Below, in pieces: positions 13,289-32,000 of a DNA stretch of 32,000 nucleotides. This DNA comes from Candidatus Saccharimonadota bacterium (lineage in GTDB: Bacteria > Bacteroidota > Bacteroidia > Flavobacteriales > Blattabacteriaceae), in the NCBI RefSeq assembly GCF_964030875.1, contig NZ_OZ034981.1, forward strand, positions 256,649 through 288,648, written 5' to 3'. Position 1 is the stretch's first letter; every line of letters begins with the position of its first letter. The position numbers were made by a program, and so were the translations under genes. The notes under the pieces were generated by a model. That model ran no database searches. It had not been told where the DNA came from and worked only from the letters and a program-made list of their open reading frames with translations.

Positions 13289-13342
13289 AATTTTTAAAGG
13301 ATTTATCTCCTGATCCTATTGTAGATCAAGATTAAAAGTTAT

Positions 13343-15796: not shown

Positions 15797-15827
15797 CTTA
15801 TAAGTTTTTCTTTTTTAATCATCTTAT
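15776..15827. repeat. 26-bp x2 perfect tandem duplication spanning the gyrA start codon
   Basis: AAGTTTTTCTTTTTTAATCATCTTAT occurs twice head to tail. On the minus strand each copy reads ATAAG-ATGATTAAAAAAGAAAAACTT. Confidence 0.93.
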
Positions 15828-16951
15828 AAATTGTTTCTTTTTAAAGATTGAAAACTTTGTTTTATAATATCATTGGAAACTTTATGGTTATAAGTACATA
15901 TACCAATTTCTCTCAGTAATGAAAAATGAATATCTTCTTGCAATTTTTTTTTATCCTGACGTATATACTTTAGTATTTGGTTTAAAATTTGTTCATTAAT
16001 TTCTCGTAAAGGGTATATACTTAATAAAGTTTTAGAAATTTCTTCGTGTTGTTTCTGTGAAAGTCCATTCATTTTCCAAGAAATCCAAGATTCGCAAACC
16101 ATTCCCAGAGCTATAGCTTCTCCATGGAGAAGAGGAGAATAGGTCGTAAGAAAATAACTTTCTATACCATGTCCTATAGTATGTCCAAAATTTAAAATTT
16201 GACGAAGACCTTTTCGTTCATATGGATCTTCAGTAACAATATTATTTTTAATAAAATTTGATTGATAAATGAATTCATTCCAATCATACCAATGCATCTT
16301 TTTTGATCGGTTCTTTATTTCTTCCCAAAAAAAATTATCTGCAATAAGACCATATTTAAAAAGTTCAGCCATTCCTGATTTTAATTCCCTATTAGGTAAA
16401 GTTTTTAGATAATGTTTATCTATGATAAGTAGATCTGGATAGTTGAATCCACCAATTTCATTTTTCATATTGTCGAGATTTATTCCAGTTTTTCCACCAG
16501 TGGAAGCATCTACCATAGCTAATAAAGTTGTTGGAATATTCAAAAAATATATCCCTCTTTTAAAAATTGAGGCCAAAAAACCGCCCAAGTCGGTAATAAC
16601 CCCGCCTCCTAGATTAATCAGCAAACTCTTTCTGTCGGCATTTTCCTTATTTAGTTGACGACATATATCAAGACAATTTTGGATATTTTTTTCCTTTTCT
16701 CCAAAAGGAATGCAAAAAATGCGTGCTTTTTTTAAATCTGGTAGATATTTCAGTAAATGTTGCAAGCATAATTTAGACGTTTGGGGATCCGTCAGAATAA
16801 ATAAGCTAGAGTAATTTGTCAGTTTATTTTGTAGAGTAATATAACCTTCTCCATTAAAAAATATGGTATAATGAATGGTTTTTAGAACGTTCTCTGTCAC
16901 CGATAAAAATTTTAAAGAGAACATAATATAATGAATACGGTGAAAATCCAC
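15824..16951 (-). CDS. aroB: 3-dehydroquinate synthase
   Basis: 375-aa ORF with the nucleotide-binding GGGVITDLGGF and metal-binding HGEAIALGM / GHTIGHG blocks. The true start may be the internal ATG at 16924. Confidence 0.9.
   Translation of the reverse strand: MDFHRIHYIMFSLKFLSVTENVLKTIHYTIFFNGEGYITLQNKLTNYSSLFILTDPQTSKLCLQHLLKYLPDLKKARIFCIPFGEKEKNIQNCLDICRQLNKENADRKSLLINLGGGVITDLGGFLASIFKRGIYFLNIPTTLLAMVDASTGGKTGINLDNMKNEIGGFNYPDLLIIDKHYLKTLPNRELKSGMAELFKYGLIADNFFWEEIKNRSKKMHWYDWNEFIYQSNFIKNNIVTEDPYERKGLRQILNFGHTIGHGIESYFLTTYSPLLHGEAIALGMVCESWISWKMNGLSQKQHEEISKTLLSIYPLREINEQILNQILKYIRQDKKKLQEDIHFSLLREIGICTYNHKVSNDIIKQSFQSLKRNNL
16696..16751. repeat. 56-bp dispersed repeat, copy inside intact aroB
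   Basis: TTTCTCCAAAAGGAATGCAAAAAATGCGTGCTTTTTTTAAATCTGGTAGATATTTC is identical to 17240-17295. Here it encodes KYLPDLKKARIFCIPFGE on the minus strand. Confidence 0.95.
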
Positions 16952-17054
16952 TATACGTCTCTATCGTGCCCATCTTCTTATATCGGGTTTTTAAATTTGA
17001 TACAATAAATGGTATACTGTTCAATTTTAACTATACACTCCTTAGCATAAGAAA

Positions 17055-18134
17055 TATGAATATACCGTAATGTAATTTAAAAACAGTTTCATTATAAGTG
17101 CAGTATTTGGAGTATTACAAATCGCAAGCAAACTGATAAGAACAATTTAAAATTTGAACAACTACCACACTTTTCAGTCACTTTTGTCTAAAGTAGCTAC
17201 TAATTCTATTACGCATCCTATACGCACAATTATTAAAAATTTCTCCAAAAGGAATGCAAAAAATGCGTGCTTTTTTTAAATCTGGTAGATATTTCCTCTG
17301 ATTACCTTATCAGAGCTACTGGATCTCCCACCAATTTTTTTGGTAATAAGAATATTGAACGTTATGCTTTACCAATAAAGTCTGTTATGGAAGCAATAAA
17401 ATTGCGAAGCTTAATTTTGCAAAGTTTTTAAACTGCCTTATTTACTAAAGATGTAAAAGAACGTGATCGATTAATGACTTTTGTCATTGCTGGAGGAGTA
17501 GAAATTTCTGGTGCTTTAAGTGAATTGAAAAACTTTATATTACCAAAGGATTATCCTGATCTAAGCCGTATGAGCATACATATAATTCAGGCTACATTTC
17601 GATTAGTTTCTGGTATGTCCCAAGCATCATCATATGCCACTATGAATTATATAAAAAAATCCGTAGTAAACATATGGCTTAACTGTCTTGTCAAAGATTA
17701 TGATGGAAATCCCGTTTATATAGATAATGGTAAAAAGATAGAATCTGGTCCCTAATAGATGGAATTGAAAATGTCTCTATAGAGGAAGGGCGTTTTCTAG
17801 TAGATGCTATGGTAAAAAATGATTCAGGGGTTTAGGAGATGTAGCTGCTCTGAAAATAGATAAACGTAATGCCTTACCAATGGTAGCTAAACCAGCTATT
17901 CAGCAAGGTATACATAACCTTTAGCAGAAGGTAAAGAAATGATACCTTATAGCTATTATTGTTCTAAATAAAGCGGTTTGTGATTTCCCCTGGTTACAGT
18001 TTAAAGGTTTTGGATATGTTAGAATAATCGTACTTCCAAATTGGATTATTCAATACTATCAGTCTAACAAAAGTATACGTTTAATCATACAATCTTATAA
18101 AAGAATTCTCCCAGAAAAGAAAGAAGTACAGTAA
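17055..18134 (+). pseudogene. ndh: type II NADH dehydrogenase (NDH-2), frameshifted, with stops and an internal deletion
   Basis: Ordered NDH-2 blocks appear in different frames: NNYHTFQSLLSKVAT..HPIRTIIKN, DYLIRATGSPTNFFGNKNIE..LPIKSVMEAIKLRSLILQSF(stop), LMTFVIAGGVEISGAL.ELKNFILPKDYP (track ORF 17474..17755), PMVAKPAIQQG, and C-terminal FKGF...NW...RLII. Confidence 0.82.
17240..17295. repeat. 56-bp dispersed repeat, ectopic copy inside the ndh pseudogene
   Basis: Exact copy of aroB-internal 16696-16751 in the same orientation. It replaces the NDH-2 segment between the PIRxIIK and DYLVIATG blocks. Confidence 0.95.
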
Positions 18135-18190
18135 CCTACTCCTATGTTATATAAGAACAAAGCATGCACTTTTAATAAAAAAAATGATAT

Positions 18191-19309
18191 ATGGTGGGAA
18201 ATACTTTTGGAAAACTTTTTAGGGTAACTACTTTTGGGGAGAGTCATGGACCTGCGATAGGAGGTGTAATAGATGGTTGCCCTTCAGATTTTAAACTTAA
18301 TTTACAACAAATTCAGAAAGAGTTGAATCGTCGTCTTCCTGGACAATCTAAGATCGTAACTCAACGACGTGAAACCGATAAAGTACACTTTTTTTCAGGT
18401 CTTTATGATAATAAAACTACTGGGACTCCGATCGGATTTGTCATTTACAATCATGATCAACAATCTAAAGATTATCTTCATCTTAAAGAAGTTTATCGTC
18501 CTTCACATGCAGATTTTACTTATATGAAAAAATATGGGGTGAGAGATTACCGGGGGGGAGGACGATCATCTGCACGTGAAACAGCCACTCGTGTCGTAGC
18601 TGGATCCGTTGCTAAACAATTGCTTAATCAGATCAGTATACATGCATTTGTTTCATCTGTAGGACCTATTACTTTAAATAAATCTTATAACGAATTGGAT
18701 TTTTCTAAGATTGAGGATACTCCAGTTCGTTGTCCTGATGAAAAAATTGCTTTAGACATGATTTCTTTTATTAATAAAATCCGTGAAGAAGGAGATACAA
18801 TAGGTGGAATTGTTAGTTGTGTAATACAAAATGTTCCTATAGGATTAGGAGAACCTGTTTTTGATAAACTCCATGCAGATCTAGGAAAAGCTATGCTCTC
18901 TATAAATGCTGTAAAAGGATTTGAATATGGTAGTGGATTTATTGGGACACAAATGCGTGGTTCAACTCATAATGATTTGTTCAATCCAGATGCAACAAGT
19001 ACTAAAACTAATTTTTCAGGAGGGATCCAAGGTGGGATATCAAATGGTATGGATATTTATTTCCGTGTAGGTTTTAAACCTGTATCTACCATTATGAGAA
19101 CGCAAACAAGTGTTGATTATTCTCATGGACAAAAAGTATTAGTGGAAGGTAAAGGAAGACATGATCCTTGTGTAGTTCCTAGAGCCGTTCCTATTGTAGA
19201 AGCTATGGCAGCACTTGTATTGGTAGATTACTGGCTTTTAAATAAAATTTCTAGATATGAAAGGAACACTTATCACGCTCATAGGTCCGACCGCGATTGG
19301 AAAAACTAA
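18191..19309 (+). CDS. aroC: chorismate synthase
   Basis: 372-aa ORF with N-terminal [15 protein letters not shown], the [10 protein letters not shown] block and [10 protein letters not shown]. The 3' end overlaps miaA by 53 nt. Confidence 0.93.
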
Positions 19310-20174
19310 TATATCCTTAGTTTTAAGCGAAAAATTTAAAACCGAAATTATTTCCTGTGACGCCAGAAAGTTCTATAAAGAACTAAAAATAGGAACAGCT
19401 ACTCCTGACGAAGAAGCACGTAGAAGAATCCCGCATCATTTTATTGGACATTTGAGTATTCATCAATATTATTCCGCTAGAGATTTTGAAATAGATGCAC
19501 TAAAAAAATTGGAAACACTTTTCGACCGTTATTCCGTAGTTATAATGGTAGGAGGCTCTGGATTTTATGAAAAGGCACTAACACAAGGATTAGACATATT
19601 TCCAGAAACCTCTCCTAAAATACGTAAAGATTTGATAACCTTCTTTAAGAAGGAAGGATTGATTCCATTACAAAAAGAACTTAAAAAAAAAGATCCAGTT
19701 TATTACCAAATGGTAGACAAAAATAATCATCAAAGAATTCTTCGTGCCTTGGAGATTATTCGGACTAGTTGTCTACCATTTTCTTCTTTCTTGTTTCATA
19801 AAAATAAGAAAAACCGTTTTTTTCGTACGATCAAAATAGGATTAAATTCACCACGTGAATTTCTTTACGAACGTATAAACCAACGTGTAAATGATATGAT
19901 GCAAAAAGGGCTTCTAGAAGAAGCACGGATTTATTTTCCTAATAAGGATTTAAATGCCTTAAAAACCGTAGGATATAGAGAATTGTTTTCTTATTTTGAG
20001 GGAAGACTTTCCTTAGAAAGAGCTATTGAAGAAATAAAGAAAAATACTCGTAATTATGCAAAAAGACAGCTAACATGGTATAGAAATGATCCAGAGGTTA
20101 CATGGTTTGAACCATATAATATAAATGAAATTTTGGCATATCTTAAAAAGATTATGACCTCAAAAAGTTTTTAG
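19257..20174 (+). CDS. miaA: tRNA dimethylallyltransferase
   Basis: 305-aa ORF with the P-loop GPTAIGKT and the MiaA blocks GGSGFY and QLTWYR. Confidence 0.92.
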
Positions 20175-20240
20175 ATTTTCTGCCAAAGTGTATTATTTAT
20201 ACTATATGGTATAGCCTTTGCCCCCTTTCCTAATAAAATT

Positions 20241-22091
20241 ATGTCCATGGGAACTATTAACGTTACTGCGGAAAATATATTTCCAATTATTAAAAAATTT
20301 CTTTATTCCGATCATGAAATTTTTCTAAGAGAGCTAATTTCTAATGCTACGGATGCTACTCTTAAGCTTAGAGCTCTTGCCGAATTTGGAGAGATAGACC
20401 AACTTGGGAATCCTCAAATAGAGATAAAAATTAATAAAGAGAAAAACACACTACATATCCTGGATCAAGGAATAGGTCTGACAGAAGAAGAAATAGAAAA
20501 GTATATCAATCAAATTGCATTTTCTGGTGCTGAAGAGTTTCTTAATAAGTACAAAAATAAAACTGATACAACTCACGGAATGATTGGACATTTTGGGTTA
20601 GGATTTTATTCCTCCTTTATGGTATCTGATAAAGTGGAGATTTTTAGTAAATCGTACAAGAAAGAATTTCCAGCAGTTCATTGGAGTTGTGATGGTTCAC
20701 CTAAATTTTCACTTGAAATACAAGATAAAAAAGAACATGGTACCGAAATTGTTTTGCATATAAATGAAGATAGTAAGGAATTTCTTGAAGAGTACCGTAT
20801 TCTAGAATTACTTAATAAATACTGTAAATTTATGCCTATTCCGATAAAGTTTGGAGAACGTGAAACAACGGATAAAGAATCTACAATAGACAATATTATA
20901 AACGATCCGACTCCTGCCTGGACAAAACAACCTTCTACACTCGTAGAAGACGATTATAAGAAATTTTATAGAGTACTTTATCCCTCCCAGTTTGAAGATC
21001 CACTCTTTTGGATACATCTTAATATAGATCATCCCTTCCATTTAACAGGAATTCTTTTTTTTCCTAAACTAAAAAATCATATAGAAATACAAAAAGATAA
21101 AATTCAACTTTATCAAAATCAGGTCTTTGTTACTGATAATGTAGAAAATATCGTTCCAGAATTTCTTCATTTACTTCGAGGTGTGATTGATTCTCCGGAC
21201 ATTCCTCTCAATGTTTCCCGTTCTTATTTGCAATACGATGCATCTGTAAAAAAAATCTCTGGATATATTACTAGAAAAGTAGCTGATAAGCTAGAAAGTA
21301 TTTTTAAAAATGACAGAAAAGATTTTGAAATAAAATGGGAATATATAAAAATAATCATCGAGTATGGTATGCTTAGCGAGGCTAAATTTTTTGATAGAGT
21401 AAAACAAATCGCTCTGTATCCTAATACAGAAGGGATTTTCTATACTTTTGACGAATTTACAGAAAAGATAAAAGAAATACAGACAGATAAAAATGGAAAA
21501 TGTATTTATCTGTACGCTTATAACAAAGAAGCTCAACATAGTTCTATTCAATCGGCTAAAGAAAAAGGTTATGAGGTAATACTTTTAGATAGTCCACTTG
21601 CTCCTCATCTTATACAAAAACTTGAGGAAGAATACAAGGATGTCTCTTTTTCTAGAGTAGATTCTGATAATATTGATAATATTATTAAAAAAGAAGAAAA
21701 CAGAATTTCCAAATTATCTGAAAATGATAAAAACGAACTAAAAAAACTATTAGAAAGTAATATAGATAAGCATCAATTTACTATCAATTTAGAAAATTTA
21801 AACAGTAAGGTTTCTCCTTTTATAATTACTATTCCTGAGTTAATGCGACGTATGAAAGAGATTAGGCAAATGAGTGGAAGGGGAATGTTAGGAATCCCTG
21901 AAGGATATAATTTAGTTGTTAATATAAACCACGAATTAATACAAAGAATTTTGTCTGAATCAGACGAAGTAAGAAAAAAACAACTTATAGAAAAATCTAT
22001 GGAATTAGCTCTGATTTCTCAGAACCTTTTACACGGAGAACGTCTTAGTCAATTCGTTTCACGTTCTTTTAACGAGTTGATAGAAAAATAA
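20241..22091 (+). CDS. htpG: molecular chaperone HtpG (HSP90 family)
   Basis: 616-aa ORF with ELISNATDA, IGHFGLGFYS and LLRGVIDSPDIPLNVSR. Confidence 0.95.
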   Translation: MSMGTINVTAENIFPIIKKFLYSDHEIFLRELISNATDATLKLRALAEFGEIDQLGNPQIEIKINKEKNTLHILDQGIGLTEEEIEKYINQIAFSGAEEFLNKYKNKTDTTHGMIGHFGLGFYSSFMVSDKVEIFSKSYKKEFPAVHWSCDGSPKFSLEIQDKKEHGTEIVLHINEDSKEFLEEYRILELLNKYCKFMPIPIKFGERETTDKESTIDNIINDPTPAWTKQPSTLVEDDYKKFYRVLYPSQFEDPLFWIHLNIDHPFHLTGILFFPKLKNHIEIQKDKIQLYQNQVFVTDNVENIVPEFLHLLRGVIDSPDIPLNVSRSYLQYDASVKKISGYITRKVADKLESIFKNDRKDFEIKWEYIKIIIEYGMLSEAKFFDRVKQIALYPNTEGIFYTFDEFTEKIKEIQTDKNGKCIYLYAYNKEAQHSSIQSAKEKGYEVILLDSPLAPHLIQKLEEEYKDVSFSRVDSDNIDNIIKKEENRISKLSENDKNELKKLLESNIDKHQFTINLENLNSKVSPFIITIPELMRRMKEIRQMSGRGMLGIPEGYNLVVNINHELIQRILSESDEVRKKQLIEKSMELALISQNLLHGERLSQFVSRSFNELIEK

Positions 22092-22161
22092 TGGATTTGT
22101 TCTTAAATTGACTGAATATTTCTAACGATATAAGCACATGCAAATTATTGCAGTTAATATT

Positions 22162-22317
22162 CTATCGTTTATATCTGACATTACTTACCGTCAGATTTTT
22201 CCTCCCTTTTGCACGTCTTCTAGACAATATTTTTCTTCCTCCTTTAGTTCCCATTCGTTTTATAAATCCGTGAACATTTCTCCTTTTTCTTCCCGATGGT
22301 TGATAAGTTCTTTTCAT
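22162..22317 (-). CDS. rpmH: 50S ribosomal protein L34
   Basis: My own minus-strand translation gives 51 aa: [51 protein letters not shown]. This is the classic L34 sequence. It is absent from the ORF track because it is short. Confidence 0.9.
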
Positions 22318-22495
22318 AATGTTTGTATTTTTTCGACTAAAATGTTGTTCTTTTTATTTTCAATATAAAAAGCATAGATTTTATGAGTCTTAATATATAA
22401 AATATTATATGGATTTTTTCTTGAAAAGGAAATATTTCCATCTTTAATTCATTAGGTAATGAAAGGGATCAGCTATTATTATAATAATTTCTTTT

Positions 22496-22580
22496 CTCCC
22501 TAGTAATCTCCCTAGTAATCTCCCTAGTAATCTCCCTAGTAATCTCCCTAGTAATCCTCCCTACTAATCTCCCTAGTCAG
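22496..22580. repeat. 12-bp tandem array, 5 perfect plus 2 degenerate copies (CTCCCTAGTAAT)
   Basis: Read directly. Perfect copies span 22496-22555, followed by CCTCCCTACTAAT and CTCCCTAGTCAG. Confidence 0.95.
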
Positions 22581-22634
22581 TTTAATATTCGTATTCGGTT
22601 ATTGGGTAAATAGGCAGATAAGAGTCCCAAAAAA

Positions 22635-22749
22635 TCCCGTCATAAGCAATATCCCCAAAATTCCCCGTCATAAGCAATATCCCCAAAATTCCCCGTCATA
22701 AGCAATATCCCCAAAATTCCCCGTCATAAGCAATATCCCCAAAATTCCC
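22635..22749. repeat. 28-bp tandem array, about 4 copies (CCCCGTCATAAGCAATATCCCCAAAATT)
   Basis: Read directly. Three perfect copies span 22663-22746, with one near-perfect copy before them and a partial copy after. Confidence 0.95.
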
Positions 22750-22859
22750 ACTAAAAGAAAGAAAAATAAACGTCTTGTAAAATTCATGGTTTAAAGCAAC
22801 AACGGGTCAGACATTTTAATTCGTGTATTCTTCTTAGGCAAATATTTAAGACGTTACCA

Positions 22860-23130
22860 TCTACGTAAAAAACACTTATTAAAGAAATTTTGTTTAATTG
22901 TACTTAACACAGGAAAGTTTTAACCCTGCACAAGAAAATCCAGGTTTTATATTTGTTCGTATCGATATTCCAGAAAAACCTAAAAAACCTAAAAGACCTA
23001 AAAGACCTGCTTGAAAATGGAGTGAACATGTATTGGCTGCATTAATAGTAGCTTATTTATATTATGGATGGGTCATCACTGCCTTTTCTTAAAGCGATTG
23101 AACAAGCAGGAATTATTACTGTATACGACA
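22860..23130 (+). pseudogene. lpxC: relic of lpxC (lpxC/fabZ) UDP-3-O-acyl-GlcNAc deacetylase, N-terminal third only
   Basis: Three conserved LpxC blocks appear in the correct order but in different frames: (LNTGK)F.NPAQENPGFIFVRIDI, WSEHVLAAL (TVEHLLAAL) and MDGSSLPFLKAIEQAGI (IMDGSSxPF). The rest of the gene is missing. Confidence 0.62.
22970..23008. repeat. 9-bp tandem array, about 4 copies (CCWAAAARA)
   Basis: CCAGAAAAA CCTAAAAAA CCTAAAAGA CCTAAAAGA CCT. It is in frame with the lpxC relic and reads PEK PKK PKR PKR P. Confidence 0.9.
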
Positions 23131-23253
23131 TCAATGGTACTAAACCTATGGCTCAAGCAGTAGGGAGCAGGAGGGAGGATTATTAGAATGCAAGGACATG
23201 GTTATAACAAATAGGCTTAAATTACTGCCCAAGTAATCAATAACGTATAAAAT

Positions 23254-23814
23254 ATGGCATATACTTCAGATATTAGAAAAGGTCTGTGCATTCGTTTTAA
23301 TAATAACGTGTATAAGATCATAGATTTTCTTCATGTAAAACCAGGTAAAGGACCAGCTTTCGTACGGACAAAACTTAGAAATTTTACAACCGGTAAAGTA
23401 TTTGATAAGACGTTCCCAGCAGGACATAAAATAGAAAAAGTATTCTTGGAATCACATAATTATCAGTTCCTTTACGAGGACAAAGATAGTTATCATTTTA
23501 TGAATACACAATGTTATAATCAAGTGCAACTGACTAAAAATTTCATTAGTAAAAAACAATTTTTAAAAGAAGGTATGGAAGTAACTATTACTTTCCAAAA
23601 ATATGATGAAACTCCCTTGAGTGTAGAAATACCTACCGAAAGTATTCTAAAAGTCATTTATACTGAACCAGGACTTAAAGGTGACACCGTTACCAATGCT
23701 AGAAAACTGGCTACTTTGGAAACCGGAGCTGTTATACAAGTTCCATTGTTTATTAAAACAGGTGATAACGTAAAAATAAATATTGAAAATGGTGTCTATA
23801 TAGAAAGAGTATAA
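23254..23814 (+). CDS. efp: elongation factor P
   Basis: 186-aa ORF with the N-terminal KPGKGPAFVRTKLRN loop and EF-P three-domain length. Confidence 0.95.
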   Translation: MAYTSDIRKGLCIRFNNNVYKIIDFLHVKPGKGPAFVRTKLRNFTTGKVFDKTFPAGHKIEKVFLESHNYQFLYEDKDSYHFMNTQCYNQVQLTKNFISKKQFLKEGMEVTITFQKYDETPLSVEIPTESILKVIYTEPGLKGDTVTNARKLATLETGAVIQVPLFIKTGDNVKINIENGVYIERV

Positions 23815-23843
23815 TATTTTAGAGTTTTATATGTTATTTCACT

Positions 23844-24746
23844 ATGAGTATACTCGTTAATAAAAATTCACGTGTTATTGTTCAGGGATTCACTGGTAAA
23901 GAAGGAACTTTTCATTCCCAGCAAATGATCAATTATGGGACATTGTTGGTTGGTGGAATTACACCGGGAAAAGGTGGGAATAAACACTTAAATATCCCGA
24001 TTTTTGATACTGTTGAACAATCAATTAAGGCTACTAGGGCGAATGTAAGTATCCTTTTTGTACCTCCTGCATTTGCCGCTGATGCAATAATGGAAGCAGC
24101 TGATGCTGAAATAGATCTTATCATATGCATTACGGAGGGGATTCCGATCTCTGATATGCTTAAGGTTAAGCAATATATTAAGCATCGAAATGCCCGTCTT
24201 ATTGGACCTAATTGTCCTGGCGTCATTACTTCAGAAGAATCTAAAGTAGGTATTATGCCTGGTTTTGTTTTTAAAAAGGGGGGAGTAGGTATTGTTTCTA
24301 AATCCGGAACTCTAACTTATGAAGCTGCATATCAAATAGTTAAATATGGATATGGTATTTCTACGGCTATAGGTATTGGAGGAGATCCCATTATCGGGAC
24401 AAACATGCGAGAAGTGATTTCTCTTTTTATGGAAGATTCGGAAACCGATGCTATTGTAATGATCGGAGAAATTGGAGGACAAATTGAAACCCAAGCCGCT
24501 CAATGGGTGAAGGAATCCATGAATAAAAAACCCATCATTGGTTTCATTGCCGGAAAAACTGCTCCAAAAGGTAGGACTATGGGGCATGCAGGTGCAATTG
24601 TCGGAGATAAAAACGAAACCGCTGAAATTAAGATTGATATTCTTAGAGATTGCGGAATCCATGTAGTGGAATCTCCAGCTGAAATAGGAGTAACCGTCGC
24701 AAAAGTTTTATCTTATAGAAGAAATAAAATCTCTAAATTTTTTTAA
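23844..24746 (+). CDS. sucD: succinyl-CoA synthetase, alpha subunit
   Basis: 300-aa ORF with VQGFTGKEGTFH, SKSGTLTYE and the phosphohistidine loop MGHAGAIV. Confidence 0.95.
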   Translation: MSILVNKNSRVIVQGFTGKEGTFHSQQMINYGTLLVGGITPGKGGNKHLNIPIFDTVEQSIKATRANVSILFVPPAFAADAIMEAADAEIDLIICITEGIPISDMLKVKQYIKHRNARLIGPNCPGVITSEESKVGIMPGFVFKKGGVGIVSKSGTLTYEAAYQIVKYGYGISTAIGIGGDPIIGTNMREVISLFMEDSETDAIVMIGEIGGQIETQAAQWVKESMNKKPIIGFIAGKTAPKGRTMGHAGAIVGDKNETAEIKIDILRDCGIHVVESPAEIGVTVAKVLSYRRNKISKFF

Positions 24747-24757
24747 AAACATTATTT

Positions 24758-25393
24758 ATGGCGTTATTAGTTGGAAAAAAGGCTCCTGATTTTAGAGTCA
24801 ATGCCGTAGTAAACGGTAAAGAAATTGTTAGTGATTTCACACTAGAACAGTTCCAATATAAAAAATATGTTCTTTTATTTTTTTATCCTAAAGATTTTAC
24901 GTTTGTATGTCCAACAGAATTACATGCTTTTCAGGAAAGATTAAAAGATTTCGAGTCTAGAAATGTGCAACTCATCGCTATTTCTACAGACACCGAGCAA
25001 TCTCATTGGGGCTGGCTACAACTTCCAAAAAGTAAGGGAGGGATACAGGGTATTACTTATCCAATTGTAGCCGATACAAATAAATATATTTCTTACAACT
25101 ATGGTGTATTAGCTGGAGAGTTGTATGTCAAAAATATACATAGTGTGTATACTAATGAAGAACTTATTGCCTATAGAGGTCTTTTTCTTATAGATAAAAA
25201 AGGAATTATCCGTCATCAGCTAGTGAATGATCTCTTTTTAGGTCGAAATGTAGAAGAATCTCTTCGTGTTGTTGATGCTTTGCAATACTTTGAAAGACAC
25301 GGAGAAGTGTGTCCGGCTAATTGGAAAAAAGGAAAAAAAGGAATAAAGGCAAATCATAACAGCATAGCTGAATATTTTACTAATAATATGTGA
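24758..25393 (+). CDS. ahpC: typical 2-Cys peroxiredoxin (AhpC/Tsa family)
   Basis: 211-aa ORF with the peroxidatic FTFVCPTE and resolving EVCPANW motifs. Confidence 0.9.
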   Translation: MALLVGKKAPDFRVNAVVNGKEIVSDFTLEQFQYKKYVLLFFYPKDFTFVCPTELHAFQERLKDFESRNVQLIAISTDTEQSHWGWLQLPKSKGGIQGITYPIVADTNKYISYNYGVLAGELYVKNIHSVYTNEELIAYRGLFLIDKKGIIRHQLVNDLFLGRNVEESLRVVDALQYFERHGEVCPANWKKGKKGIKANHNSIAEYFTNNM

Positions 25394-25401
25394 TCTCTGC
25401 G

Positions 25402-26688
25402 ATGAGAGTCGCTTTTTATACAATGGGATGCAAATTAAATTTTGCTGAAACTTCCACTATTTCTAGAACTTTTTTAATTCAAGGATATTCTGTTGTAAAA
25501 TTTGAAGAAAATGCTGATATCTATGTGATTAGTACTTGTTCGGTAACTAAAAAAGCGGAGAAAGAATTCATACATATTGTTAGAATGGCTTTAAAAAGGA
25601 ATCCAAAAGCCTTTATTATTGCCATAGGTTGCTATGCTCAACTAAATCCTGAAGAACTATCTCGTATTTCCGGGGTGGATTTAGTATTAGGAATAAATGA
25701 AAGATTCAAAATTACAGATTATCTTTATGATCTTTCTAAAAAAGAAAGAGGATATATTCATTCCTGTTCTCTCGGAACTACGTATATTGGTTCCTATTCG
25801 ATTGGAACTAGAACTCGAGCCTTTCTTAAGATCCAAGATGGATGTGATTATAAATGTAGTTATTGCACTATTCCATTAGCACGTGGAATCTCTCGCTCAG
25901 ATAGTTTGGAAAATGTTGTAAACAATGCTAAGGAAATCTCTCGTCATGGAGTGAAAGAAATTGTATTAACTGGAGTAAATATTGGAGAATTTGGTAATAA
26001 AACGCACCAAAATACTTTTTTAGAACTCATTGAATCACTAGATGGAATAAAAGAGATTGATCGGTTTCGTGTTTCTTCTATAGAACCCAACTTACTTCGC
26101 AATGAAATTATAGAATTTATAGCTCAAAGTAGGAAATTCGTTCCACATTTTCATGTTCCTCTACAATCAGGTAGTAATGATATTCTTCGAAAAATGCGAA
26201 GACGTTATCTTAGAGAGCTATATGCTGATAAGGTAGAAAAGATTAAGTTACTTCTCCCTCAAGCTAGTATAGGAACTGATGTAATCGTCGGATTTCCATA
26301 TGAAAGTGATAAACATTTCATAGAAAGTTTTCGCTTTTTAAGCGAAATAGATATATCATATCTTCATGTATTTACTTATTCTGAAAGGAAGCGTACGGAG
26401 GCTATCCAAATGGAAGGCATAGTTCCTAAAAATATTAGATATAAACGAAATCAAGTTCTTAAAGGTTTATCAGTTAAAAAACGGATACAATTTTACGAAA
26501 GCCAAATAGGAACCGAACATACCGTGCTTTTCGAAGATAAAAAAAAAGAAGGTTGCCTCTTCGGTTATACCGAAAATTATGTAAGAGTGAAAGCTCCATT
26601 AGGAGAAGCAATCCCCAATACTTTACAAAAAGTTCGTTTAAAGTCTATAGATAGAGACGGTATAATGTTAATGGAAAAAATTAGATAA
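25402..26688 (+). CDS. mtaB: tRNA methylthiotransferase, MtaB-like (radical SAM)
   Basis: N-terminal FYTMGCKLNFAE, radical-SAM CDYKCSYCTIP and a TRAM-like C-terminus. The ATG at 25402 is preferred over the GTG at 25390. Confidence 0.87.
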   Translation: MRVAFYTMGCKLNFAETSTISRTFLIQGYSVVKFEENADIYVISTCSVTKKAEKEFIHIVRMALKRNPKAFIIAIGCYAQLNPEELSRISGVDLVLGINERFKITDYLYDLSKKERGYIHSCSLGTTYIGSYSIGTRTRAFLKIQDGCDYKCSYCTIPLARGISRSDSLENVVNNAKEISRHGVKEIVLTGVNIGEFGNKTHQNTFLELIESLDGIKEIDRFRVSSIEPNLLRNEIIEFIAQSRKFVPHFHVPLQSGSNDILRKMRRRYLRELYADKVEKIKLLLPQASIGTDVIVGFPYESDKHFIESFRFLSEIDISYLHVFTYSERKRTEAIQMEGIVPKNIRYKRNQVLKGLSVKKRIQFYESQIGTEHTVLFEDKKKEGCLFGYTENYVRVKAPLGEAIPNTLQKVRLKSIDRDGIMLMEKIR

Positions 26689-26785
26689 AAATAAATATTC
26701 ATCAGACCATTAAAATGATTAATTACTATATTAGTAGCAATGATGTAATTATACATTTTTATGGAAGAGTTACCTTAAAATTATA

Positions 26786-26915
26786 ATGGTAGTAGAAAAG
26801 TTATGGGTAATATGGTAGTAGAAAAGTTATGGGTAATATGGTAGTAGAAAAGTTATGGGTAATATGGTAGTAGAAAAGTTATGGGTAATATGGTAGTAGA
26901 AAAGTTAGGGGTAAT
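26786..26915. repeat. 26-bp x5 tandem array built from the pfkA start codon and first 8 codons
   Basis: ATGGTAGTAGAAAAGTTATGGGTAAT occurs four times perfectly (26786-26889). The gene-proximal fifth copy (26890-26915) differs at one base (TTAGGG instead of TTATGG). Confidence 0.96.
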
Positions 26916-27861
26916 GACTTCAGGAGGTGATTCTCCTGGAATGAATGCTGCTATTCGCGCTGTGGTTCATACTGCTGCACAGTACGAAATACAATGTTTC
27001 GGTATTCGATTAGGATATAAAGGTCTCATTGAAGGAGATGTCCTAGAATTGGAAACTAAAGATGTTAGAAATATTATCCACCGGGGAGGAACTTTTCTAA
27101 AGACAGCTAGATCTTCTAAATTCAGAACTTTTGAGGGTCGTAAAAAAGCTTATGAAAACATTCAAAAATATAAAATGGAAGGGTTAATCATAATCGGTGG
27201 AGATGGGTCTTTTACTGGAGCTAAGGTATTCGGAAGTGAATATGATATTCCTATTATTGGGATACCTGGCACCATAGATAATGATATTTATGGAACAGAT
27301 TTTACTGTCGGTTATGATACTGCTTTAAACACTGTGGTAAATGTAATAGACAAAATTGTCGATACAGCGACATCTCATAATCGTTTATTTTTTATAGAGG
27401 TTATGGGTCGTGATTCTGGTTTTATTGCCCTTAACAGTGGAATTGCTACCGGTGCACTTGATATTCTCATTCCGGAGAAAGATTATACTCTTGATAAGTT
27501 ATTCTCCTCTGTAGAACGAGGAAGCAATCAAGGAAAATCATCTAGTATTATCGTAGTAGCAGAAGGTAAAAAGCTTGGAAGAGTATATGCTTTGGCCAAA
27601 GCTACACAAATAAAATACCCCTATTACGATATTCGAGTTTCTATTCTTGGACACGTTCAACGTGGAGGAAATCCTAGTTGTTATGATCGTGTGTTAGCTA
27701 GTAGATTTGGGGTAGAAGCAGTGGAGGCTCTGTTACATGGTAAAAGAGAAGTTATGATTGGTATTAGAAGCGGGAAAATTATTTTTACACCTTTTGGAGA
27801 GGCAATACAGAAACAAAAAGAAATCAATAAAGATCTCATTAAGATATTAGATGTTATATAG
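26890..27861 (+). CDS. pfkA: ATP-dependent 6-phosphofructokinase
   Basis: MTSGGDSPGMNA, IIGGDGS, PGTIDND, MGRDSG and GHVQRGG are all present. An in-frame ATG at 26881 (the track start) is an alternative start. Confidence 0.92.
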   Translation: MVVEKLGVMTSGGDSPGMNAAIRAVVHTAAQYEIQCFGIRLGYKGLIEGDVLELETKDVRNIIHRGGTFLKTARSSKFRTFEGRKKAYENIQKYKMEGLIIIGGDGSFTGAKVFGSEYDIPIIGIPGTIDNDIYGTDFTVGYDTALNTVVNVIDKIVDTATSHNRLFFIEVMGRDSGFIALNSGIATGALDILIPEKDYTLDKLFSSVERGSNQGKSSSIIVVAEGKKLGRVYALAKATQIKYPYYDIRVSILGHVQRGGNPSCYDRVLASRFGVEAVEALLHGKREVMIGIRSGKIIFTPFGEAIQKQKEINKDLIKILDVI

Positions 27862-27864
27862 GTT

Positions 27865-28045
27865 TGAACGTGTGACTTTGGTAACTACGGTTACGGTCAG
27901 CTCAACTATAGCGGAACTTTCTTCCACAGCTGTAGGTAAAGTAATTTTAGTGGCGTGTGCCTCCAGCAAATGTTTTCTACAGCCTGGTATACCGCTTTGG
28001 TCCAATCACTTAGGAACAATGCAGTTGAATATACACCACGATTTT
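27865..28045 (+). pseudogene. gapA: internal relic of glyceraldehyde-3-phosphate dehydrogenase (about 60 of about 330 codons)
   Basis: GAPDH blocks are spread over frames: LW.LRLRSAQL.RNFLP (DWRGGRSAxxNIIP), SSTAVGKVI (STGAAKAVGKVIP) and WRVPPANVFYSLVYRF...T.EQC (FRVPTxxVSVVDLTVRLEK..TYEEIC). The segment looks more G+C-rich than its surroundings. pfkA-gap adjacency is common in flavobacteria. Confidence 0.5.
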
Positions 28046-28069
28046 TTAATCCTAAAAATTTATTAAAAA

Positions 28070-29077
28070 ATGGAACGCTATGAAAAAATTATTTACGATT
28101 TCATCAATAAACGATATAAACCAATTTATTTTTTTATGGGTGAGGAATCATACTACATTGATTTAATTAGCCGTTTTATAGAAAAAAACATCTTCTCTAA
28201 AGAGGAAAAGTTTTTTAATCAAATTGTTCTGTACGGTCCAGAAACCGATATAATAAGTGTTATAGAAAAGGCCAGAAAATATCCAATAACAAGTAAATAT
28301 ATAGTAATTATTTTAAAAGAGGCTCAAATGATGGAAAAAAGTATAGAAAAATTAGCTGTTTATGTAGAGGCTCTTATAAGAAGTACGATATTGGTAATAT
28401 GTTATAAAAACAAAGTACTAGATAAGAATAAAAAATTATATAAACTGATACACCATCATGGTGGTGTAGTGTTCAATAGTCAAAAATATCGAGAATACCA
28501 AATTCCCGATTGGATTTCTCGTAAAGTAAAGAGTATGAATAGAAGCATTACTTCAAAAGCACAACAGCTTTTATCTGAATATGCTGGAACTTCTTTATCT
28601 ACTATTGTTCAAGCACTTGAAAAAATTGATTTAGCTTTACCGGAAGGTGCTGAAATTACTCTTTGGGATATTGAGCAGTATACTGGTATAAAAAAGAATT
28701 TAAATATTTTTTCGTGGCAAAGGGCAATAGCTGAGAAAAATTTTCATAAAACGCAAGAAATATCTTTTTTTTTGGGGAAAAACTCCAAAGAATTCCCTAT
28801 CATTTTTTTAATTAACGTGCTTTATCGATTTTTTGTCAATCTTGTAAAGTACCATCTAAGTATTCCTGATTCTAGAGAGAATCTCTCAAAGAGATTAAAT
28901 GTTTTTCCATATATTATAAAATATTATGAAAAAGCCGCACATCATTATTCTTTACAAGAAAATATAAAGATCTTTTACGATCTAAGAGAAGCCGATAAAC
29001 AGTCCAAGGGGATTGATTATCCTCCTCTGTCAGAAAATAATATTTTGCCAGAACTTATTTGTAATATTTTTTTCTAA
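28070..29077 (+). CDS. holA: DNA polymerase III, delta subunit
   Basis: 335-aa ORF. The N-terminal KPIYFFMGEESYYIDLISRFIEKNIFS..EKFFNQIVLYG...IVIILKEAQ matches flavobacterial HolA. Confidence 0.85.
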   Translation: MERYEKIIYDFINKRYKPIYFFMGEESYYIDLISRFIEKNIFSKEEKFFNQIVLYGPETDIISVIEKARKYPITSKYIVIILKEAQMMEKSIEKLAVYVEALIRSTILVICYKNKVLDKNKKLYKLIHHHGGVVFNSQKYREYQIPDWISRKVKSMNRSITSKAQQLLSEYAGTSLSTIVQALEKIDLALPEGAEITLWDIEQYTGIKKNLNIFSWQRAIAEKNFHKTQEISFFLGKNSKEFPIIFLINVLYRFFVNLVKYHLSIPDSRENLSKRLNVFPYIIKYYEKAAHHYSLQENIKIFYDLREADKQSKGIDYPPLSENNILPELICNIFF

Positions 29078-30042
29078 TGGATATAAAATCTATATTAATG
29101 TTAAAAGAATCTGTTCATAATTGTGTTATAATAGGTTCGGGACCAGCAGGTTATTCTGCTGCTATCTATACAGCTCGTGCTGGTCTTAACCCTTTAGTAT
29201 ATGCAGGAAAAAATCCTGGAGGACAGCTTACTACTACTACGCTAGTAGAAAATTATCCTGGTTATCCTAACGGTATAACCGGACCTGAATTAATGGAAAA
29301 TATGAAAAAACAAGCTGAATCTTTTGGTGCCATTGTAAAAAGGCAAACAATTGTAAAAGTTTCCCTAGTTAAGGAAAAAAATGGTATAAATAAACTATAT
29401 ACAGACAATAATGAAAAAGTACTGGCCAAAGCTATCATTATAGCTACAGGAGCTTTATCTAAAGATCTAGGGTTAGAAAGTGAAGAACGATTCAAAGGAT
29501 ACGGAGTTTCTTCGTGTGCTATTTGTGACGGTTTCTTGTATAAAGATAAAGTAGTAGCTGTCGTTGGAGGAGGTGATACAGCCCTTGAAGAAACAATTTC
29601 TCTTTCTCAGAGATGTAAAATAGTATATTTATTGGTGCGAAGTGGTGAATTAAGAGCCTCAAAGGCTATGCAATGTCGTTTATGGAAAATATCGAATCTA
29701 AAAATTTATTTTTATCATGAAATTAAGGAAATTTTAGGTGAGAGGTTTGTTGAAGGTGTGCGAATCATTAACAATAAAAATAAAAAGGAATCTATTCTAT
29801 CCATAGAAGGTATTTTTATAGCTATTGGTCATATTCCTAATACAGCTATCTTTAGGGGACAAATTAATTTGGATCAAATGGGTTATATAATTACTAAAAA
29901 AGGAAGTACACACACCAATATACCTAGTGTTTTTGCTGCTGGAGATGTCCAGGATGCGGTTTACCGTCAAGCGATAACTTCATCTGGTACTGGTTGTATG
30001 GCAGCACTTGATTTAGAACGTTATCTGATGGAAAATCATTAA
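29077..30042 (+). CDS. trxB: thioredoxin-disulfide reductase
   Basis: 321-aa ORF with FAD GSGPAGYSAA, redox-active CAICDG and NADPH GGGDTALEE. Its ATG overlaps the holA TAA (TAATG). Confidence 0.94.
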   Translation: MDIKSILMLKESVHNCVIIGSGPAGYSAAIYTARAGLNPLVYAGKNPGGQLTTTTLVENYPGYPNGITGPELMENMKKQAESFGAIVKRQTIVKVSLVKEKNGINKLYTDNNEKVLAKAIIIATGALSKDLGLESEERFKGYGVSSCAICDGFLYKDKVVAVVGGGDTALEETISLSQRCKIVYLLVRSGELRASKAMQCRLWKISNLKIYFYHEIKEILGERFVEGVRIINNKNKKESILSIEGIFIAIGHIPNTAIFRGQINLDQMGYIITKKGSTHTNIPSVFAAGDVQDAVYRQAITSSGTGCMAALDLERYLMENH

Positions 30043-30298
30043 TTAATTAGTCATGAAGCGTTCTGTATTTATATTTTCGACAGATTCTTACAGTGGTTAA
30101 TTTGCATCTTTTGGGGAAAAACTCCAAATGTGGCTTTTCTTTTACCGATTAAAGAAAATAACAGTGTTATAGATGATTATACTACTACAGTAGTAGACTA
30201 TTTTCAGTTAAAAATGCAGCATGAAGAAACTTTTGTTTTTATTGTTTTTACTAAAAGTGAAGCTGTTACATTATATAATACTGGGAAAAAAAACTAGA

Positions 30299-30335
30299 AG
30301 AATTTTATAGTGGTAGAATTTTATAGTGGTAGAAG
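30299..30335. repeat. 16-bp tandem duplication, about 2.3 copies (AGAATTTTATAGTGGT)
   Basis: Read directly. It lies inside the pta pseudogene and duplicates native sequence that encodes ..NFIVVEG. Confidence 0.9.
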
Positions 30336-30496
30336 GTTATAATTCTATAGCTAAACACCTTCATCTTCCATTTATCACGAATATTTTTCAACAAATAAGG
30401 GTTTAATTTCGGAACTATGATGGTTTACAAAGGATTAGCTTCCGGAATGGTCTCTGGAGCCGTAAATACTACTGCGCAAACTATTCGCCCTGCTCT

Positions 30497-30573
30497 TAAA
30501 CTGTTCCTAAACTGTTCCTAAACTGTTCCTAAACTGTTCCTAAACTGTTCCTAAACTGTTCCTAAACTGTTCC
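30497..30573. repeat. 11-bp x7 perfect tandem array (TAAACTGTTCC)
   Basis: Read directly. Seven identical copies start inside the pta codons for ..IRPALK. Confidence 0.96.
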
Positions 30574-31004
30574 TGTAGTAAACACAGTTTCTTCTATTTT
30601 TTTCATGCTTTTACACGATCGTGTGCTCGTTTATGGAGATTGTGCTATTGTTCCTGATATTACTATTGCTTCGTAAAAAACTGCTCAATATTTTGTGCCG
30701 CAGTAGAGCATAGATACAAAAATTGCTTTACTTTCTTATTCTTCAGTAAATTCTGGTTCAGGAATCCAAGTGGAAAACCGAGCTCCGTCGGACCTATTCA
30801 ATCCTACGCCGCAGTAGATACTATTACAACAAATACCCCATTCTCCTGTAGCCGTACAGTCTAAGGCTAATGTGCTTATTTTTCCTGATCTTAATCCGGT
30901 TACTTATAAAGCAGTGCAAAGAGAAACTAAATCTTTAGCCGAAGGGCTTAATTATTTTAGTCGCGGAGCAACTGCGACTATTATTGTTCCCTCTCAACAT
31001 ATTT

Positions 31005-32000
31005 ATGATTATTAATTCCGTCAGTTCCTCTATAAAATATCAACTCATGGAGATGCCTGAAAATAAAGTCTTTGCCAAAGGGCTCATAGAACGAATAGGA
31101 GGACATCTTCATAAGAAATACTTTAAAAATGGTTCTTGGCAAGAATTAAAGAAAAAAATCTCCTATAACATTTCAGGTTTTGAAAAAATAAATATTTTAC
31201 TATATGATAGCCAAATAGGAGTTATTAAAATTCCTGATGAGATCTTCGCTATTGGTCATAGAGTGGGACATGGGAAAACTATAGAAATTTATAAAAAAGT
31301 AATTCGTTCTGTTTTTCCCTTAAATATTATGGGTATAGAAAAAGTTTTCCCTAAAGCGAAAGAGTTTGCCGTTGCTTTTCATCATAAAATTACTGAAAAA
31401 GCCCATAGGTATGCTTTAATATTTTATATACGTTATGACGTATATCATGGAATAAGTCATCAATCTGTTTACCGTCCTGCAATAAAAATTATTACTCTTC
31501 ATTTAGGAAATGGAGCTAGTATAGCGGTTATTAAGGAAGGCATTTCTACAGATCCCAGTATGGGGTTCGGTCCCAATAGCGTACTTATTATGGTGACTCG
31601 TAGTGGAGATTTAGATACAACAATAATTTTTGACTTTTTAAGTCAGTCGTATAGCCCTGAATCTCTTTACGAGATATTGAATAAAAAAAGTGTAGCCCTA
31701 TCTGGAAACAGCGATATGCGAGATAGTATCCTAAATTAGCCTCTGATATGTATGCTTATCGTATTAAAAAATATATTGGATATTATATAGCAACGGTAAA
31801 CGTAATTGAGGCAATAAGATTTACAGTAGGAGAATTTGTACGAAGTATGATTTGTGATGAAATGGATTTTTTAGGTCTCATCCTAGATGAAAAGAAAAAT
31901 ACTATTAAAGCCTCTGAATACAATAAAAGTCGGGTAAAAATTTTTATAATTCCTACCGATGAAGAAATTGCTAGAGAGGTTTTTTATAAGATGTGGTTAC
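31005..32000 (+). pseudogene. ackA: acetate kinase, degraded (internal deletions, lost motifs, frameshift); runs to the window edge
   Basis: MIINSVSSSIKYQL resembles INSGSSSxKYQL. The HNPANL and DTAFH motifs are absent or degraded, and there is a stop at 31737-31739. The C-terminal part (DMYAYRIKKYIGYY...FIIPTDEEIAREV) continues in another frame. Confidence 0.85.

Follow-up and report, generated by a model that had tools for sequence, protein, structure and literature searches.

A five-copy 26-bp tandem array at the pfkA start codon of Candidatus Walczuchella from Icerya purchasi, probably a young slippage product in front of an intact gene

Why is the start codon of a glycolytic gene, pfkA, preceded by four near-perfect copies of itself? 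The question is raised by a 32,000-nucleotide stretch of DNA (RefSeq contig NZ_OZ034981.1, positions 256,649 to 288,648 of the forward strand), called the window below, which derives from a bacterial symbiont of the cottony cushion scale Icerya purchasi, Candidatus Walczuchella (strain ICPU of Choi et al. 2025). At positions 26786-26915 of its plus strand a 26-bp unit is repeated five times head to tail, and the last repeat is the beginning of pfkA itself. We consider it highly probable that the array is a young tandem amplification, generated by replication slippage or unequal sister-strand misalignment and tolerated since its last copy keeps the gene intact, and that it is no device.

Tandem Repeats Finder (TRF) described the array with a period of 26, 5.0 copies, 99% matches and a score of 253, and a pattern search with the unit returned four exact matches and one with a single mismatch against an expectation of 0.00 (100 shuffles). 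Each unit consists of the pfkA start codon and the next 23 nt, with units starting at 26786, 26812, 26838, 26864 and 26890, and the adjoining bases add no further repeat on either flank. Copies 1-4 (26786-26889) have the sequence ATGGTAGTAGAAAAGTTATGGGTAAT with no differences among the four. Copy 5 (26890-26915) carries the ATG at 26890 that aligns with the pfkA start of related strains, and it differs from the other four at unit position 18, where it has G (TTAGGGG) and copies 1-4 have T (TTATGGG). An earlier reading of the window, referred to here as the first-pass annotation, had described a five-copy 26-bp array built from the pfkA start, with four identical upstream copies one base away from the gene-proximal copy. 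TRF and the pattern search recover the array as described, and the letters agree on the single difference.

The polarity of this change was established by comparing Walczuchella strains ICPU (Icerya purchasi), ICSE (I. seychellarum), CRGE and CRMU (both from Crypticerya) and LLAX (Llaveia), together with two Logan re-assemblies; the Drosicha strains DRCO and DRPI were left out of the pfkA comparison. The first-pass annotation had proposed such a comparison, and it found one unit each in ICSE, CRGE, CRMU and LLAX. In these sisters and in the two re-assemblies the single unit is ATGGGAGTAGAAAAGTTAGGGGTAAT, it sits in a near-invariant context, and the ICPU sequence is longer by exactly 104 bp, so that the native upstream region has indeed been pushed 104 bp away from the gene's start, as had been stated. 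Judged by these alignments, the array is a derived feature restricted to the I. purchasi lineage, the gene-proximal G is the ancestral base and amplification acted on the T variant. The sisters all carry TTAGGGG, and the proposal that one mutated copy had been amplified is upheld, since the T must be the derived state. A second substitution, GGA to GTA at codon 2 (glycine to valine, G2V), was found only in ICPU and in all five of its copies, and would therefore most simply be older than the duplication. A wider PfkA search of genome contigs found relatives at no more than 61% identity, with no Walczuchella among them, and the conserved 5' sequence of pfkA had no match in a scan of metagenome contigs.

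Synonymous divergence (dS) of ICPU was ~0.02-0.04 to ICSE, CRGE and CRMU and ~0.10 to LLAX. With so little divergence from the sisters, and no differences among copies 1-4, the amplification is judged recent. The simplest succession of changes would begin with the GGA to GTA change at codon 2, followed by a 26-bp duplication across the start codon, then by the G-to-T change in the upstream copy and finally by amplification of the T-bearing copy to four. These steps would have taken place in a genome stripped of almost all DNA repair and recombination functions, and the product persists because the gene-proximal copy still gives an intact start and open reading frame (ORF). The array has several of the properties expected of such a tandem repeat, with near-identical head-to-tail units, a single copy in relatives, and a place within a genome-wide excess of arrays that has been filtered from coding sequence.

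TRF found seven clear arrays in the 32-kb window. At a TRF score of at least 100, the density was 15.6 arrays per 100 kb in ICPU, 33.9 in ICSE, 19.8 in CRGE, 14.3 in CRMU and 0 in LLAX, against 0.58 per 100 kb in free-living relatives (1.21 Mb of pfkA neighbourhoods), a contrast of ~25- to 60-fold drawn from small samples that include decaying regions. The homologous ~20-kb stretches of ICSE, CRGE and CRMU likewise hold numerous arrays, which often lie at orthologous sites with differing unit lengths and copy numbers; one site holds 6.8 copies of a 12-bp unit in ICPU and 8.6 copies of an 18-bp unit in ICSE, and another holds 2.2 copies of a 16-bp unit in ICPU and 5.2 copies of a 24-bp unit in CRGE. 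The arrays are placed far from randomly. Those with a period not divisible by three were confined to the rpmH-efp spacer, the pta/ackA pseudogenes and the ndh relic, or spanned start codons, and arrays within intact genes had periods of 18, 21 and 30 only. By a rough count ~80% of the window is intact coding sequence, yet not one of the seven clear arrays is contained entirely within an intact gene. Walczuchella genomes have no dnaB, dnaG or mutL, and three of the seven retain mutS (PMC12188211, PMC3971599). The first-pass annotation had offered a neutral slippage product as one of two readings of the pfkA array, and this reading fits the pattern of young arrays across the genome.

A second I. 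purchasi assembly allowed the stability of the arrays to be compared. The 288,943-bp chromosome CP170564.1, a SPAdes and Pilon assembly of PCR-free Illumina reads at 1,523x coverage (PMC12188211), matches window positions 12162-32000 (19.8 kb) with 0 mismatches and a single 11-bp gap. This gap falls in an 11-bp array, TAAACTGTTCC, in the pta/ackA pseudogene region (30497-30574, plus strand), which counts 7.1 units in the window against 8.1 in CP170564.1 (L081 13617-13705 and L088 12428-12516). Slippage appears to be ongoing, because this array differs by one unit between assemblies that are otherwise free of mismatches. The same one-unit difference suggests that the window comes from an independent assembly of the I. 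purchasi symbiont and not from CP170564.1. Taken by itself, the 11-bp array either varies in copy number or reacts to assembly method. CP170564.1 encodes a 326-aa PfkA with a Met-Gly-Asn (MGN) N-terminus, and RefSeq record WP_342226849.1, which has the same MGN-PfkA sequence, points to a separate project; PRJEB75090 is named in PMC13459715, and Choi et al. deposited their data under PRJNA1129605. The pfkA array has 5.0 copies in both assemblies (n = 2).

Two further duplications of 26 bp across start codons were found, and they strengthen the case for a common kind of mutation. On the minus strand of the window, the gyrA start carries a duplication (15774-15842) for which TRF gave a period of 26 and 2.6 copies, in agreement with the earlier remark that its unit length equals that of the pfkA array. 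It was found in both I. purchasi assemblies and not in LLAX, CRGE or ICSE, and it creates a short upstream ORF (uORF), MIKKEKLIR, which ends in a TGA overlapping the real ATG (ATGA). In CRGE, where the gyrA start is unduplicated, the 8-bp microhomology AACTTATC occurs twice, 26 bp apart, and this repeated AACTTATC is by its sequence a textbook substrate for slipped-strand duplication. At the same junction the aroB stop has been displaced by the duplication; the 8-nt overlap of aroB and gyrA seen in LLAX and CRGE is replaced in ICPU by a gap of 27 nt. The other case lies at the mtaB start of CRMU (L086 8590-8645, and L087 2431-2486 in the Logan assembly of the same run), where the duplication is flanked by GATG, a 4-bp microhomology. 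Its upstream copy has one substitution and encodes the uORF MIVAFYTMG, with a TGA that again overlaps the real ATG. The CRMU mtaB duplication is independent of the ICPU cases.

Several observations at this point weigh against slippage as the whole account. The pfkA unit has no microhomology at the 26-bp spacing, its only exact direct repeat being TAATG at a distance of 24 bp, so that the first duplication step at pfkA is less cleanly explained than those at gyrA and mtaB. A purely random process would not be expected to give one and the same length, 26 bp, to all three duplications across a start, and the identical pfkA copy number in two assemblies, while the other array varies, fits stability or selection on five copies (n = 2). 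Microhomology is typical of slippage repeats and not obligatory for them. The three duplications also differ in phase relative to the ATG (+1 to +26, -10 to +16 and -1 to +25), and with a unit of length 3n+2 the duplicated ORF stops right at the true start (ATGA or ATGGTAG). In pfkA and mtaB a 3n+1 unit would run ~40 nt into the gene, making 3n+2 clearly better. With such a 3n+2 filter the coincidence would be less striking, at about p = 0.04 over unit lengths of 16-30 bp, a result that is suggestive but post hoc.

What the array adds in front of pfkA is a ladder of short ORFs. Each of the four upstream unit-start ATGs opens the ten-codon ORF MVVEKLWVIW, followed by a TAG that forms bases 5-7 of the following unit (ATGGTAG). 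uORF 1 (26786-26818, plus strand, as are all four) has its ATG in the native upstream context and its TAG on bases 5-7 of unit 2, and it is followed by uORF 2 (26812-26844), uORF 3 (26838-26870) and uORF 4 (26864-26896), the last of which terminates within pfkA at a TAG (26894-26896) that overlaps the real start. The first-pass annotation had read these ten-codon ORFs in the same way, each with its TAG in the next unit and the last ending inside pfkA, and it had missed a second set of starts. The derived T makes one additional ATG in each of copies 1-4, at 26803, 26829, 26855 and 26881. The first three open 13-codon versions of uORFs 2, 3 and 4, respectively (MGNMVVEKLWVIW), and the ATG at 26881, in copy 4, is in frame with pfkA. 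Two public records annotate it as the start of a 326-aa MGN-PfkA (26881-27861, plus strand), and the orthologous ORF has 323 aa (26890-27861). In total the 104 nt ahead of the real start have gained eight AUGs and four short uORFs from the array. An overlap between the last stop and the main start is a property shared with regulatory uORFs. Conservation is not, as the uORF ladder is missing from all four sister strains.

Upstream of the array lies the native spacer between mtaB and pfkA (26689-26785, plus strand), 97 bp long and nearly invariant across strains. The conservation of this spacer was considered as a sign of constraint and rejected, as a dS of 0.02-0.10 is too low to be informative. 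The spacer includes a 23-codon leader ORF, MINYYISSNDVIIHFYGRVTLKL (26715-26786), whose TAA overlaps the first pfkA-type ATG as TAATG; it is the same in all strains, and divergence is too low to reveal constraint on it. The sole promoter-like motif of the spacer is a weak TACATTTT at 26752. Neither a sigma-70 scan nor a scan for the Bacteroidetes motif TAnnTTTG found a promoter-like motif within or across the array, and reading the array as a promoter was rejected on these two empty scans. Transcription of the array, as leader, would then be expected to start at the weak motif at 26752 or to read through from mtaB. A reading of the units as iterons or DnaA boxes was also rejected, with resemblance to the DnaA box assessed by eye; a 26-bp unit spans ~2.5 helical turns, lies in a gene start, is not found in relatives and is ~10 kb from the minimum of GC skew.

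Initiation in Flavobacteria and other Bacteroidetes is independent of a Shine-Dalgarno (SD) sequence, A at -3, -6, -12 and -13 is favourable, RNA structure matters, and AUG triplets are depleted around genuine starts (PMC6847099). Copy 1 retains the native context, with A at -3 and -6, and copies 2-5 have G at -6. Since ribosomes are blind to an SD sequence and AUGs are depleted near starts, the extra upstream AUGs should capture ribosomes as decoys. Every uORF ends on the following AUG, so some ribosomes may reinitiate, and short stop-start overlaps are the regime in which translational coupling works (PMC6728339, PMC10666635). PfkA would then probably be made partly by ribosomes that initiate directly at 26881 or 26890 and partly by termination-reinitiation, with a lower yield as the likeliest outcome; four serial reinitiation steps should attenuate output, and initiation at 26881 would merely prepend Met-Gly-Asn. 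Termination-reinitiation is mechanistically possible as a side effect of the array.

The RNA of the array was predicted to be unstructured, and a hairpin that takes in the real start was predicted from the single ICPU sequence (26890-26954, plus strand), in which AUGGUAGUA (26890-26898) pairs with UGCUGCUAU (26946-26954). The predicted fold of ICPU had a free energy of -25.4 kcal/mol and a z of -2.6; in the sisters z was -0.9 and the start was unpaired in the predicted centroid structure. The pairing is enabled by the ICPU-specific G-to-T change (G-to-U in RNA) at gene base 5, and the stop of uORF 4 falls inside the predicted helix. Coupling through unfolding of this hairpin is conceivable, and we give it little weight.

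The gene behind the array is intact. PfkA of ICPU matches the Pfam PFK profile over its whole length (E 2e-109, profile positions 1-277 of 277), is 97-99% identical to PfkA of the sisters and is full-length in all five strains. Its C-terminus (27859-27861) reads ...ILDVI in ICPU, ICSE, CRGE and CRMU; that of LLAX is two residues longer, ...ILDVISV (L082 10976-10978). The ratio of non-synonymous to synonymous divergence (dN/dS) of pfkA, for ICPU against each sister, was 0.15-0.29 (Nei-Gojobori; small counts with limited power), and the values of ten neighbouring genes span this range, from ~0.05 for sucD through 0.19-0.46 for aroC to 0.39-1.2 for holA and 0.44-0.78 for trxB. Choi et al. reported that dN of pfkA was the highest across seven genomes, and their figures give an omega of ~0.2 (PMC12188211); the high dN is presumably driven by the Drosicha strains. 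Glycolysis is incomplete in Walczuchella LLAX, where gapA, fbaA, eno and pgk are absent (PMC3971599). In free-living relatives gapA lies directly 3' of pfkA. The corresponding pfkA-holA spacer of the window (27862-28069) is GC-richer than its surroundings, had no Rfam match at the gathering threshold or at E up to 1, and gave no significant relic in a tblastn search with free-living GapA, which returned a TAVGKVI-like trace of ~9 residues (E 0.17-1.4 in a tiny database). The earlier description of the neighbouring gapA as a relic thus finds faint support in this short trace.

If slippage made the array, it might still have been kept for a purpose. One such explanation is a selected translational leader, in which a relay of four uORFs loads ribosomes in the native context, passes them by termination-reinitiation to the real start, tunes the dosage of PfkA or offsets the G2V hairpin, and the copy number acts as a heritable dial. 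Each stop overlaps the next AUG, uORF 4 ends in the 5' arm of the predicted hairpin, the fold beats its shuffles in ICPU only (z of -2.6 compared to -0.9), the short overlaps suit coupling (PMC6728339, PMC10666635), both assemblies have five copies, and all three start-spanning duplications have 3n+2 units with the stop on the real start. The ladder, however, is present in no sister strain, its copy number is the same in the two assemblies, a series of reinitiation steps should lower output and not raise it, arrays with plainly no function abound in the genome, the hairpin is predicted from one sequence, and PfkA, whose pathway is incomplete, is an orphan enzyme with no obvious need for fine control. 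We therefore regard a selected leader as very unlikely. The first-pass annotation had put forward a copy-number-variable leader that tunes PfkA translation as its second reading, and no support for it was found; five copies were found in two assemblies, the uORFs are in no sister and the frame is never switched. A broader form of the idea would make 26-bp (3n+2) start duplications a recurrent, selectable class, with the pfkA ladder as a compensatory change whose unpaired starts load SD-blind ribosomes, whose reinitiation melts the G2V hairpin and whose copy number sets dosage. We find this conjecture, too, very improbable.

A different possibility is that the array marks the onset of pfkA pseudogenisation, with PfkA dispensable, a damaging leader insertion fixed by drift and lesions to follow. 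The incomplete glycolysis of LLAX (PMC3971599) is in keeping with this, as are the faint GapA trace that alone is left 3' of pfkA, the highest dN reported by Choi et al. across seven genomes and the reported erosion of energy-metabolism genes. Yet pfkA is full-length with a complete PFK match in five strains, its dN/dS is like that of its neighbours and agrees with the omega of Choi et al., and essential gyrA carries the same type of start duplication, so that a start duplication alone is no sign of dispensability. Decay of pfkA is possible, and as an explanation of the array we hold it unlikely. The earlier suggestion that the array is a first step of pfkA decay is not favoured by an intact gene with dN/dS in its neighbours' range, and the relaxed selection and lesions that would have pointed to pure decay were not seen in the four sister strains compared. 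The remaining alternative is an artefact of short-read de Bruijn graph assembly, in the array or in its copy number. CP170564.1 was built from Illumina reads with SPAdes and Pilon, its authors mention uneven coverage at repeats (PMC12188211), and the periodic stretch of ~123 bp is near the maximum k-mer size and the read length. Against this, two different assemblies both have 5.0 copies, the RefSeq protein from a separate project needs at least two units for its MGN N-terminus, the junction sequence and the T/G variant require real reads, and the analogous CRMU duplications were reproduced by an independent assembler. An artefact is accordingly the least credible of the explanations, and extremely improbable. 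A slippage product that the intact last copy made tolerable is, in our judgement, what the array most probably is.

Other parts of the window show the same kind of repeat. The non-coding rpmH-efp spacer (22318-23253) contains arrays at 22495-22577, 22625-22749 and 22974-23008, with units of 12, 28 and 9 bp, respectively. The corresponding spacers of ICSE, CRGE and CRMU have arrays at related sites with other unit lengths and copy numbers, and that of LLAX has a called 127-aa ORF and zero arrays; the spacer resembles the hypervariable remains of a lost gene. The fragmented pta/ackA pseudogenes (30043-31739) contain arrays at 30299-30341 and 30497-30574. One array site in this region is shared, its units being 16 bp long in ICPU and 24 bp in CRGE and CRMU, and ICSE has 10 copies of a 13-bp unit and 20 copies of a 6-bp unit nearby. 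LLAX, the Llaveia symbiont with the largest genome, has almost no strong arrays in the same region. The array burst may be specific to the clade of Icerya and Crypticerya symbionts, or the 2014 LLAX assembly may have collapsed its arrays. The minimum of cumulative GC skew lies at ~16900-18200 of the window, with genes on the minus strand to the left and on the plus strand to the right. This stretch is a non-coding relic where LLAX has an intact ndh-like gene, and it may be the region of the replication origin.

The value of the pfkA array is that it is a clean, datable case of mutation in a repair-deficient endosymbiont genome, one in which short tandem duplications arise everywhere and survive in decaying DNA or where the duplicated start spares the gene. 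The word "tandem" is absent from the main text of PMC12188211, and the abundance of arrays in the Walczuchella of Icerya and Crypticerya is unmentioned there. The arrays bear on the theme of accelerated pseudogenisation in that paper, as they could seed frameshifts and explain differences in assembly size. They could also mislead gene callers, and the annotated start of MGN-PfkA is such a repeat artefact. Finally, the array offers a natural test case for decoy AUGs in SD-independent translation.

Three known systems resemble the array in part. Simple-sequence contingency loci, described by Moxon and colleagues, generate phase variation through changes in repeat copy number. The pfkA array shares with them a slippage-prone tandem repeat at the 5' end of a gene. 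It differs in that the pfkA frame is the same at any copy number, the last unit bringing its own start, so that repeat number was found to switch neither frame nor promoter spacing; no heterogeneity in copy number was seen between the two assemblies, and the gene is a housekeeping gene of a vertically inherited symbiont. The array also resembles stop-start coupling (Huber et al., 2019, 2023; PMC6728339, PMC10666635), in which the stop of a uORF overlaps the next AUG, as it does with ATGA at gyrA and mtaB and with TAATG at the leader ORF. In contrast to known coupling, the overlap at pfkA spans 7 nt (ATGGTAG) instead of 4 or 1 nt, and the upstream ORFs are accidental ten-codon copies of a start, not genes. 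Set against the avoidance of AUG in Bacteroidetes (Baez et al., 2019; PMC6847099), the array breaks the rule with its eight extra AUGs, and because of this violation it is best read as a mildly harmful, tolerated mutation rather than a designed feature.

The closest parallel is Portiera aleyrodidarum of Bemisia tabaci (Sloan and Moran, 2013; PMC3673631), in which a burst of short tandem repeats in intergenic DNA goes together with the disappearance of genes for replication and repair. Portiera and Walczuchella are alike in being obligate endosymbionts of insects, in having tiny genomes depleted of such genes, and in carrying lineage-specific repeats in intergenic or decaying DNA with indels in repeat context; each has a sister without the repeats (Portiera TV and Walczuchella LLAX, respectively). 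The two differ in that Portiera has a spike of 7-bp units whereas units in Walczuchella range from 6 to 30 bp, and in lineage, Walczuchella belonging to the Bacteroidota and Portiera to the Gammaproteobacteria. Several arrays of Walczuchella, moreover, duplicate the start codons of intact genes, which is undescribed for Portiera. The pfkA array is thus a further example of a known event, the proliferation of tandem repeats in a repair-poor endosymbiont, and its placement on a start codon is what is unusual about it.

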